Positions 1-18,134 of a DNA stretch of 30,887 bases are shown piece after piece. Position 1 is the first letter of the stretch, and each line of letters opens with the position of its first letter. The stretch is from Escherichia coli (lineage in GTDB: Bacteria > Pseudomonadota > Gammaproteobacteria > Enterobacterales > Enterobacteriaceae), in assembly GCF_003334765.1 (NCBI RefSeq), contig NZ_QOWT01000041.1. One strand, given 5' to 3'. The position numbers and the translations under genes were made by a program. The notes beneath the pieces were generated by a model, which was not told the origin of the DNA, did no database searches, and worked only from the letters and a program-made list of their open reading frames with translations.

Positions 1-27
1 TTTCTCTTCAACCGAACCGGCTGTTTG

Positions 28-43
28 TGTGAAGTGATTCACA
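28..43. promoter_or_regulatory. Perfect CRP-consensus palindrome TGTGA-N6-TCACA, at the window edge so its target gene is unknown
   Basis: Sequence tgtgaagtgattcaca matches both half-sites of the cAMP-CRP consensus exactly with 6-bp spacing. It lies about 360 bp upstream of the purH start; the gene it might serve lies outside or at the edge of the window. Confidence 0.4.
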
Positions 44-264
44 TCCGCCGTGTCGATGGAGGCGCATTATAGGGAGTTCTCCGCAGGCCGCAATAGAAAA
101 ATTGCAGAAAAATGACTGACTGCTGCATTCCCCAGCAAAAGCCCGCTTTATACCTTTTTACGCACAGAGTTATCCACAATCATCAATGTAATTTCTGTAT
201 TTTGCCCACGGTAACCACAGTCAAAATTGTGATCACCATTGAAAGAGAAAAATTCGCGAGCGTT

Positions 265-280
265 GCGCAAACGTTTTCGT
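265..280. promoter_or_regulatory. PurR operator (PUR box) upstream of purH
   Basis: gcgcaaacgttttcgt matches the PurR operator consensus (ACGCAAACGTTTTCNT) and sits about 110 bp upstream of the purH start codon. purHD is a classic PurR regulon member. Confidence 0.7.
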
Positions 281-387
281 TACAATGCGGGCGAAAAATA
301 AGGATGCCCCGTTAGGGGCGTTAGCTGAGTTTTTCGCGAAAAATTCAGCTAACGCTCTCTGTAATAGTCAAATCCAGGGGATTTACC

Positions 388-1977
388 ATGCAACAACGTC
401 GTCCAGTCCGCCGCGCTCTGCTCAGTGTTTCTGACAAAGCCGGTATCGTCGAATTCGCCCAGGCACTTTCCGCACGCGGTGTGGAGCTGCTGTCTACAGG
501 GGGCACTGCCCGTCTGTTAGCAGAAAAAGGTCTGCCGGTAACCGAAGTTTCCGATTACACCGGTTTCCCGGAGATGATGGATGGACGCGTGAAGACCCTG
601 CATCCGAAAGTACATGGTGGCATTCTGGGCCGTCGCGGCCAGGACGATGCCATTATGGAAGAACATCAGATCCAGCCTATCGATATGGTGGTTGTTAACC
701 TGTATCCGTTCGCCCAGACCGTGGCCCGTGAAGGTTGCTCGCTGGAAGATGCGGTTGAGAACATCGATATCGGCGGCCCAACGATGGTGCGCTCCGCCGC
801 CAAGAACCATAAAGATGTCGCAATCGTGGTGAAGAGCAGCGACTATGACGCCATTATTAAAGAGATGGATGACAACGAAGGATCGCTGACGCTTGCAACC
901 CGTTTCGACCTCGCCATCAAAGCCTTCGAACACACTGCCGCCTACGACAGCATGATTGCCAACTACTTCGGCAGCATGGTTCCGGCTTACCACGGTGAAA
1001 GCAAAGAAGCCGCCGGTCGCTTCCCACGCACGCTGAACCTGAACTTCATTAAGAAGCTGGATATGCGTTACGGCGAGAACAGCCACCAGCAGGCTGCCTT
1101 CTATATAGAAGAGAATGTGAAAGAAGCCTCCGTTGCTACCGCAACCCAGGTTCAGGGTAAAGCCCTCTCTTATAACAACATCGCCGATACCGATGCGGCG
1201 CTGGAGTGCGTGAAAGAGTTCGCCGAGCCGGCATGTGTGATTGTGAAGCACGCCAACCCTTGCGGCGTGGCTATCGGCAATTCCATTCTTGATGCTTACG
1301 ATCGCGCGTACAAAACCGACCCAACCTCCGCATTCGGCGGCATCATTGCCTTTAACCGCGAGCTGGATGCGGAAACCGCACAGGCCATCATTTCTCGTCA
1401 GTTTGTCGAAGTGATTATTGCGCCGTCCGCCAGCGAAGAAGCCCTGAAAATCACCGCCGCCAAACAGAACGTACGCGTTCTGACCTGCGGTCAGTGGGGC
1501 GAGCGTGTTCCGGGCCTCGATTTCAAACGCGTGAACGGCGGTCTGCTGGTTCAGGATCGTGACCTGGGGATGGTCGGTGCGGAAGAACTGCGCGTGGTGA
1601 CCAAACGTCAGCCGAGCGAACAGGAACTGCGTGATGCGCTGTTCTGCTGGAAGGTGGCGAAGTTTGTGAAATCCAACGCTATCGTCTATGCCAAAAACAA
1701 TATGACTATCGGCATTGGCGCGGGCCAGATGAGCCGCGTGTACTCCGCAAAAATCGCCGGTATTAAAGCGGCCGATGAAGGCCTGGAAGTGAAAGGTTCC
1801 TCGATGGCTTCTGACGCGTTCTTCCCGTTCCGCGACGGTATTGATGCCGCCGCCGCTGCGGGCGTGACCTGCGTAATCCAGCCTGGCGGTTCTATCCGTG
1901 ATGACGAAGTGATTGCCGCCGCCGACGAGCACGGTATTGCGATGCTCTTCACCGACATGCGCCACTTCCGCCATTAA
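388..1977 (+). CDS. purH: Bifunctional AICAR transformylase / IMP cyclohydrolase
   Basis: 529-aa ORF beginning [27 protein letters not shown], with an MGS-like domain followed by an AICARFT domain. The length equals E. coli PurH. A ribosome-binding site (aggggatt) precedes it, and purD follows 11 bp downstream. Confidence 0.95.
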
Positions 1978-17601: not shown

Positions 17602-18134
17602 GAGGGCTGAGGAAGCTGCTTATTTCTCAATAAGTTGTAGGCAATGGTGAAAAATTTCACTGATTTACCTTTCTGTTTTTCAGAAATGGGATAAGCGCTA
17701 GTTACATGCAAACGGAGTTTTTTCTTTTCCCTGAAAGCCCTGAACGCAACAAAGTAAAATGCCTTATCTCCTCCGTCTAAGTCCACCTCAATCACGGCAT
17801 AGCTACCATACCCGGCATGAATAACGTTGCTTTCTGGCAGCGCCAAAATAGTTCTTTTTAAGTGTGTGCGCGCTAAGTTATAACGGTGCTGGCAGAAGGG
17901 ACGAGATTCTTTAGGCGCGTGGTACATTAACGATTGTTTTTCTTCGTTCGTCTGATGTTCATAATCTTTTGTGAAGCAGTGAAGAGAGTAGGTAACCCAA
18001 AAGCGATACTCTAAAGGCTCTTTGCCCTCATGATGCTGAACGTAGACAGCCTGATGAGCATCAAGAAATGATAAATCACGAATATCACCATCCGGATGTC
18101 CAAAAGGTCGCCACTTTTCCACTTCCTGTTTCAT
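17595..18134 (-). CDS. yjaZ: Heat-shock / stationary-phase protein YjaZ (HtrC)
   Basis: 179 aa, MKQEVEKWRPFGHPDGDIRDLSFLDAHQAVYVQHHEGKEPLEYRF. It lies downstream of rpoC on the same strand, as in E. coli. Confidence 0.85.
   Translation of the reverse strand: MKQEVEKWRPFGHPDGDIRDLSFLDAHQAVYVQHHEGKEPLEYRFWVTYSLHCFTKDYEHQTNEEKQSLMYHAPKESRPFCQHRYNLARTHLKRTILALPESNVIHAGYGSYAVIEVDLDGGDKAFYFVAFRAFREKKKLRLHVTSAYPISEKQKGKSVKFFTIAYNLLRNKQLPQPSK

Follow-up and report, generated by a model that had tools for sequence, protein, structure and literature searches.

In Escherichia coli, ribosome synthesis and carbon catabolism are inversely coordinated, and the effect of cAMP-CRP on rRNA is generally thought to be indirect, exerted through growth rate, ppGpp, and fis expression. 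The heterogeneity of the seven rrn operons has long been noted. Canonical CRP sites follow a 22-bp consensus (AAATGTGATCTAGATCACATTT) and include those of lac and gal as well as the perfect-core sites of caiT/fixA and gcd/hpt. At the level of RNA, the 5' hairpin of ompA protects against 5'-end-dependent decay. At crp/yhfA, one CRP site serves both as a repressor of crp, at +41.5, and as an activator of the divergent yhfA, at -42.5 (Shimada 2011, Table S4).

Here we describe a palindrome that lies near the left edge of a stretch of E. coli DNA of 30,887 bp, the whole of which is referred to below as the window. Positions 28 to 43 of the window read TGTGAAGTGATTCACA, a 16-bp palindrome with a perfect CRP core (TGTGA-N6-TCACA). 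An earlier note on this DNA had claimed that both CRP half-sites are perfect, and the sequence, read directly, is indeed an exact match.

Results and discussion

Position of the palindrome at the rrnE promoters

The first part of the window (positions 1 to 1200) matches E. coli K-12 MG1655 with 100% identity and is shared by all 5426 complete E. coli genomes. The annotated record shows purH and purD transcribed to the right; the leftward neighbor, on the opposite strand, is the rrnE operon, which encodes 16S rRNA, tRNA-Glu, and 23S rRNA. The earlier note had proposed that the palindrome might serve a divergent gene or promoter just outside the window. Extending the sequence leftward revealed such a divergent unit, the rrnE rRNA operon, with its P2 promoter just left of the window; the proposal has to be amended in that the site lies between two promoters, the first of which, P1, has its -10 element and start inside the window. 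The features of this region are as follows.

Positions 1 to 7, plus strand: T-rich tail of a terminator-like hairpin, the stem of which lies just left of the window, directly upstream of the rrnE P2 -35
Positions 11 to 57, minus strand: predicted 5'-terminal stem-loop of the rrnE P1 transcript, +1 to +47 (fold compared with shuffles, rrnB plus 26 lineages, compensatory changes)
Positions 25 to 46, no strand: extended 22-bp CRP-type site (weight matrix, 14.1 bits)
Position 57, minus strand: rrnE P1 start (A), assigned by homology to rrnB P1 (TATAAT, 8-nt GC-rich discriminator, +1)
Positions 65 to 70, plus strand (purH facing): hypothetical mirror-image -10, CATTAT, which starts 21 bp after the palindrome and would give a start near window position 77, close to 4207843 on the minus strand of NC_000913.3
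Positions 66 to 71, minus strand: rrnE P1 -10, TATAAT, invariant in all seven operons and followed by the discriminator GCGCCTCC at positions 65 to 58
Positions 88 to 93, minus strand: rrnE P1 -35, TTGCGG, with a 16-bp spacer to the -10 (sequence and rrn comparison)
Positions 265 to 286, plus strand: putative purH promoter core, with a PurR-box-like sequence, GCGCAAACGTTTTCGT, at 265 to 280 and a -10, TACAAT, at 281 to 286 (consensus knowledge of PurR boxes)
Positions 388 to 1977, plus strand: purH coding sequence, with its ATG at 388

We take the start of an rrn P1 promoter to be the A found 9 nt after TATAAT; applied to rrnD, this rule gives the known G. Because this established start applies to rrnE by homology, the region of the palindrome should be transcribed. 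The palindrome occupies +15 to +30 of P1, centered at +22.5, and thus belongs to the transcribed spacer between rrnE P1 and P2. The P2 promoter is TTGACT-16-TAATAT, with a -35 beginning 17 bp beyond the left end of the window, and the center of the palindrome lies at about -86.5 relative to the P2 start deduced from the P2 -10. With respect to the inferred purH start, the center is at about -258. The distance of about 360 bp upstream of purH that the note had given agrees with the annotation, in which the motif ends 345 bp before the ATG at 388, and the placement at about -258 upholds the view that the site is too distant to act on purH.

Other inverted repeats were observed on either side of the palindrome. 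A terminator-like hairpin at window positions -15 to 7 on the plus strand (CCTGAATTTCAGG and then ATTTTTCTCT) points toward purH, antisense to the rRNA. The sense strand of this hairpin is the second stem-loop of the predicted P1 leader fold, and operons of the rrnB class have a different palindrome at the equivalent position. In the 5' untranslated region of purH, positions 306 to 352 hold two adjacent near-perfect hairpins, GCCCCGTTAGGGGC (306 to 319) and TTAGCTGAGTTTTTCGCGAAAAATTCAGCTAA (321 to 352). On the minus strand, the former was flagged as resembling a terminator, and together the two produce a weak, spurious Rfam match to mir-725 (E = 0.02).

Score and rarity of the CRP match

The exact pattern TGTGA-N6-TCACA has a single match in the 30,887-bp window with both strands scanned. 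The chance expectation is 0.01 per window, and 1 of 100 dinucleotide-preserving shuffles contained a match. For a graded comparison, we used a symmetrised 22-bp CRP weight matrix derived from 68 curated RegulonDB CRP sites (Shimada 2011, Table S4). With its 14.1 bits, the extended site at positions 25 to 46 would rank 7th among these 68 sites, in the top tenth, and it has the top matrix score of the whole window, while the runners-up in the purH-rrsE spacer reach 8.6 and 7.6 bits. The second-best matrix score in the window, 12.7 bits, belongs to AATGGTGAAAAATTTCACTGAT at positions 17643 to 17664.

A matrix score of at least 14.1 bits was present in 5.3% of 1000 shuffled windows of about 31 kb each. 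Across a 4.6-Mb genome, about 4 exact matches would be expected by chance, by our arithmetic (4.6e6/4^10). The observation of the palindrome is confirmed, and its own statistical weight is modest.

Copies among the rrn operons of E. coli

Alignment of the seven rrn upstream regions of MG1655 reveals two classes of P1-P2 spacer. Starting at the P1 -10 and continuing into the 16S gene, rrnH is the same as rrnE, the 16-mer included; upstream of the -10, the two are wholly different. A copy with one mismatch, CGTGAAACACTTCACA (8.6 bits), is present in rrnD. On NC_000913.3, the three copies occupy 4207877 to 4207892 (rrnE), 223499 to 223514 (rrnH), and 3429019 to 3429034 (rrnD). The remaining four operons, rrnA, rrnB, rrnC, and rrnG, are without the motif and have GGCAAACACGCCGCC at that place. 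Members of the E/H/D class share the P2 -10 TAATAT and a shorter P1-P2 spacer; in the A/B/C/G class, the P2 -10 is TATTAT and the spacer is approximately 9 to 11 nt longer. Every complete E. coli genome (5426 genomes) contains the first 75 nt of the window, at a median of two places per genome.

A CRP-like sequence of another kind was seen upstream of rrnC, where AAGTGTGATTACGGTTGCAAAA (NC_000913.3, approximately 3941375 to 3941396) scores 11.6 bits at a distance of about 130 bp upstream from rrnC P1. Within it is TGTGATTACGGTTGCA, which was recovered by gSELEX as a CRP target for yieP/rrsC (Shimada 2011). Another rrn operon therefore has a different, experimentally enriched CRP site.

Conservation across Enterobacterales

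Species were compared at the rrn promoter that adjoins purH. The identical 16-mer is found there in Escherichia, Klebsiella, Citrobacter, Enterobacter, Dryocola, and Pseudescherichia, and both pentamers are kept around a changed center (ACAACT, AAAACA, or ACAACA) in Scandinavium, Serratia, Buttiauxella, and Trabulsiella. The purH-adjoining promoters of Raoultella, Pluralibacter, Pantoea, Sodalis, Photorhabdus, and Xenorhabdus are without the motif. In the loci examined in Vibrio, Pasteurellaceae, and Aeromonas, purH does not adjoin an rrn operon. One record in this comparison, CP170191.1, titled Enterobacter hormaechei strain B56, has a PurH 100% identical to that of E. coli and a near-identical rrnE promoter region and looks mislabelled.

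A broader sample came from a metagenome scan that was anchored solely on the P1 core TATAATGCGCCTCCATCGACACGG and pooled with the genome loci, giving 86 distinct leaders. The perfect motif stands at the identical offset in 48 of them. The ten columns of the half-sites hardly vary among 37 distinct E-type sequences, with changes almost confined to the outermost base (AGTGA, CGTGA, and TCACG), and the 4 nt before and the 6 nt after the motif are freely variable. Loop positions 13 and 14 (AC) of this class behave like the half-sites, being invariant in 36 of the 37 sequences. In 41 of 42 distinct sequences that bear the motif, 30 nt separate it from the P1 -10; in rrnD the spacing is 29 nt. The distance to the P2 -10 in the same 42 sequences takes values of 70, 72, 73, 74, 75, 76, 77, or 85 nt, with no helical phasing.

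The region is also touched by an Rfam family, RF02849 (Ysr197, Yersinia sRNA 197), which aligns to window positions -105 to 126 on the minus strand with 117 bits (E = 1e-29), a score below the gathering score of 167. The alignment runs from the rrnE P1 promoter through the P1-P2 leader into the beginning of the P2 leader. Ysr197 appears to be an rrn promoter/leader fragment that was catalogued as an sRNA and not an independent sRNA gene. Since its model spans untranscribed promoter DNA, we set its structure aside as evidence.

A predicted stem-loop at the 5' end of the P1 leader

On the minus strand, which is the sense strand of rrn, the palindrome reads TGTGAATCACTTCACA. The rrnE P1 transcript is predicted to begin with a stem-loop of three tiers, in which an outer stem joins the 5' end, AUCGA, to UCGGU at +43 to +47, a middle stem joins CGGC to GCCG, and the apical hairpin, UGUGAA-UCAC-UUCACA, is the CRP palindrome. 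For the rrnE leader from +1 to +108, the minimum free energy is -33.6 kcal/mol (z = -3.69), none of 200 shuffles is as stable, and the palindrome forms the apical hairpin. The rrnB leader gives the same three-tier fold with other sequences; its changed start, ACUGAC, is matched by a changed partner, GUCAG. Changes in the initial transcribed sequence of rrnB and rrnD are accompanied by changes in the partner strand of the outer stem.

The fold was further examined by an alignment-free test on 26 lineages with less than 70% identity in +11 to +56, with the first 10 nt, which the promoter constrains, held fixed in the shuffles. The mean z across these divergent lineages was -2.87, and 22 of the 26 fell below -1.64. 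The first six nucleotides paired with a partner beyond +26 with a median probability of 0.77, compared with 0.21 in shuffles (p<0.05 in 19 of the 26 lineages). This 5'-end signal in the 26 lineages is independent of the apical stem spelling the CRP motif.

The apical stem was compared between classes by numbering pairs from a shared anchor, which places the E-type pairs at (5,20) to (9,16). In the same register, the apical pairs are UA/GC/UA/GC/AU in the E class, CG/GC/GC/CG in the rrnB class, and AU/AU/GC/CG in a class designated X. The X class includes a lineage with E-type flanks (CGCT...CAGCGACG) in which TGTGA/TCACA has been swapped for AAGC/GCTT with the pairing retained. Further lineages have small GCAA-tetraloop hairpins nearby.

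In a gapless anchored alignment, which was forced by an identical artificial 3' tail lying outside every pair, 78.9% of the cells at the five apical pairs hold standard pairs, compared with 18 to 50% when the partner is slid, a comparison in which the register was taken from the E-class sequence and is thereby favored over the slid controls. The apical covariation score is 0.497; shuffles give 0.139, and none of 500 attains the observed value. All 5 of the 5 pairs change on both sides, although these changes reflect few class-level events.

A sequence-based alignment of 19 representatives with MAFFT, followed by RNAalifold, recovered no pairs. MAFFT had gapped the E-class rows and shifted their register, and in the alignment given to RNAalifold the classes were visibly misaligned. 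We attribute the null result to this misalignment, that is, to a technical failure, because the anchored gapless and alignment-free tests both gave clear signals. What the comparisons can show as maintained is an RNA hairpin, the version of which in rrnE, rrnH, and rrnD spells the CRP consensus.

The palindrome as the proposed DNA image of an RNA hairpin

The explanation that we prefer, with about an even chance of being correct, is that the palindrome reflects, at the DNA level, the apical hairpin of a conserved 5' stem-loop in the P1 pre-rRNA leader and that the CRP consensus is spelled incidentally in the rrnE/H/D class. The 16-mer would encode the hairpin UGUGAA-UCAC-UUCACA at the tip of a stem-loop in which the 5' end of the pre-rRNA leader made from P1 is sequestered. 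The other rrn leaders, those of rrnA, rrnB, rrnC, rrnG, and many enterobacterial lineages, would retain a hairpin in the same register, built from stems of quite different sequence, and the rrnE/rrnH version, nearly matched by that of rrnD, would merely happen to spell TGTGA-N6-TCACA. As duplex DNA, the same bases would make a good CRP-type site, probably bindable by cAMP-CRP, and such binding would be unnecessary to explain why the 16-mer is present or conserved.

We infer that selection acts on the RNA rather than on the DNA. As to what is selected for, our guess is that the predicted stem-loop protects or sequesters the 5' end or else aids promoter-proximal elongation. The center of the CRP consensus carries little information. 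The invariance of the AC loop in the E class is not explained by CRP binding, since CRP has little preference at those central positions.

Some of the evidence sits uneasily with an origin in RNA. A 5-bp stem with a 6-nt spacing should spell TGTGA/TCACA in approximately 1 in 1000 cases per stem class, which makes the coincidence an uncomfortable one. The half-sites are otherwise unchanged from Escherichia to Serratia and Yersinia, with variation confined to the outermost position, which is also the pattern of real CRP sites. The covariation comes from a few class-level events and not from many independent ones, and the combination of sequence-based alignment and RNAalifold gave no structure.

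A possible CRP operator at P1

The main rival to the RNA hairpin is a selected cAMP-CRP operator that would lower the P1 promoters of rrnE, rrnH, and, more weakly, rrnD when cAMP is high, either sterically or via a divergent class II promoter, or both. We regard it as possible but doubtful. In the steric variant, CRP at +22.5 would, judging from known footprints, conflict with the hold of RNA polymerase on downstream DNA at P1. In the divergent variant, polymerase would be recruited in the manner of crp/yhfA to a class II promoter whose -10 overlaps the P1 -10. The RNA hairpin and an operator could coexist.

Binding of CRP at the palindrome is plausible from its sequence, as the core is perfect and the 14.1-bit score stands 7th among the 68 curated sites. 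At least 10 genera share invariant half-sites despite variation in the flanks on the 5' and 3' sides and in part of the spacer, and the Yersinia consensus of Ysr197 is likewise UGUGA-N6-UCACA. The fixed spacing to P1 would fit either repression of P1 or a divergent promoter like that of crp/yhfA, for which RegulonDB provides the precedent (Shimada 2011, Table S4). The spacing that holds in 41 of 42 sequences places the center of the palindrome, at window position 35.5, at -41.5 as reckoned from the start of the mirror-image -10. This hexamer, CATTAT (65 to 70), has 4 of 6 matches to a -10, including A-11 and T-7; as a sequence it merely mirrors the invariant TATAAT of P1, and the divergent promoter proposed from it is hypothetical. 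With respect to documented promoters, the palindrome fits neither a class I position (-61.5, -72.5, -82.5, or -92.5) nor the class II position (-41.5).

Binding data exist for a CRP site predicted for purH. As far as the accessible part of the 2023 CRPBSFinder paper goes, a predicted purH CRP site was shifted by cAMP-CRP in a gel, and purH mRNA, measured by qPCR, rose 2-fold in a crp deletion (PMC10199772). The palindrome is the only strong candidate in the spacer, which would make the gel shift a point in favor of an operator; however, that part of the paper does not confirm the shifted fragment as the palindrome at positions 28 to 43. The CRP gSELEX table (Shimada 2011) lists yieP/rrsC, and the spacers purH/rrsE and gmhB/rrsH are not among its entries. 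In the literature searched, we found no report of CRP at the rrnE, rrnH, or rrnD promoter, and the 16-mer string occurred in no paper searched. Absence from CRP ChIP lists would be weak evidence against an operator, because reads over the motif should multi-map between rrnE and rrnH.

Expression data also speak against operator function. Reporter fusions to the seven rrn promoters all gave the same order of media (LB > glucose > glycerol), and rrnE was the strongest and rrnH the weakest promoter despite their identical motif. Moreover, the motif is missing from four of the seven operons, and in one lineage a stem that is not a CRP site has taken its place. That cAMP-CRP binds inside the P1 initial transcribed region of rrnE and rrnH, more weakly in that of rrnD, and in the same operon class across Enterobacterales, thereby lowering P1 activity in poor carbon, is in our judgment a tentative proposal that is rather unlikely to be correct.

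Improbable alternatives: activation of P2, control of purH, and chance

A role for the palindrome at P2 seems very improbable. CRP would act there as a class I activator of rrnE P2, sustaining basal rRNA synthesis in poor carbon. In established spacing studies, the permissive class I centers in this range are -82.5 and -92.5. The site does lie upstream of P2, within a range workable for class I activation, and P2 is regarded as the rrn promoter that matters at slow growth (PMC4696680). A center at -86.5, however, is roughly half a helical turn from either permissive position, and the distance to the P2 -10 drifts between 70 and 85 nt among 42 distinct sequences. Class I activation of P2 was rejected on these two grounds, wrong phase and drifting spacing.

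We give equally little credence to direct regulation of purH-purD by the palindrome, as would follow from the CRPBSFinder paper, in which CRP represses purH about 2-fold. The increase in purH mRNA in the crp deletion and the positive EMSA on the predicted purH site, as given in the accessible part of that paper (PMC10199772), are what this assignment has in its favor. Against it, the center at about -258 from the putative purH start lies beyond the rrnE P1 UP element and Fis region, there is no second operator for looping, and a 2-fold change in a slow-growing crp mutant could easily be indirect, through purine pools, PurR, or growth rate. The fragment tested in that study may, from what its accessible part states, have been the weaker half-site at positions 225 to 246. 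Direct control of purH was rejected because the distance is too great. The half-site at 225 to 246, AATTGTGATCACCATTGAAAGA, is a weak CRP-like sequence (7.6 bits) centered about 58 bp upstream of the putative purH start.

A chance palindrome with neither DNA- nor RNA-level function would be compatible with the approximately 4 exact matches expected per genome and with the 5.3% of shuffled 31-kb windows that reach the same score, but it is strongly disfavored by the conservation data, given that none of the 5426 complete E. coli genomes departs from the sequence (present at a median of two places in each), that the half-sites are kept across Enterobacterales while the flanks diverge, and that the palindrome belongs to a fold more stable than shuffles in 22 of 26 lineages.

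Implications

If the palindrome were an operator, it would provide a hard-wired, operon-specific link between catabolite status and ribosome synthesis, beside ppGpp/DksA and Fis and superimposed on the RNA hairpin. It would also supply a reason for the differences among the seven operons, and the direct link could be tested by simple promoter fusions. If, as in the RNA explanation that we prefer, the CRP match is incidental, the locus would illustrate that a textbook-perfect motif can be a by-product of structured RNA. In the literature searched, we found no earlier description of a conserved 5' stem-loop in the P1 leader. On this analysis, the CRP site that has been published for purH should also be treated with caution.

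Comparison with known systems

As an RNA element, the predicted rrnE stem-loop resembles the 5' hairpin of ompA in that the very 5' nucleotides are paired in a stable predicted stem-loop and undergo compensatory change. It differs in belonging to a pre-rRNA leader that is removed in processing, so that a stabilising role in rrnE would be an extrapolation from the ompA type. The resemblance to Ysr197 is one of sequence, as the consensus of that family carries UGUGA-N6-UCACA at the same place as the rrnE leader; in contrast to the fold predicted here, its model starts upstream of the P1 start and covers untranscribed DNA, and the half-sites are not locally paired in its structure line.

As a DNA element, the palindrome shares with the canonical CRP sites of lac, gal, caiT/fixA, and gcd/hpt both perfect pentamers and the 6-bp spacing. 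Unlike these sites, it is located at +22.5 of P1, -86.5 of P2, and about -258 of purH. Position 6 is A/T-swapped relative to the canonical sites, giving TGTGAA...TTCACA in place of TGTGAT...ATCACA, and the swap extends the RNA stem.

Among regulatory arrangements, crp/yhfA offers a parallel in that the rrnE site is likewise downstream of a start and at a class II distance from an opposite -10 that overlaps the first promoter. The differences are that the divergent promoter at rrnE is hypothetical (-10 CATTAT) and that the site is 20 bp closer to the start of the promoter that would be repressed. The competing promoter at this locus, rrn P1, is moreover among the strongest in the cell.
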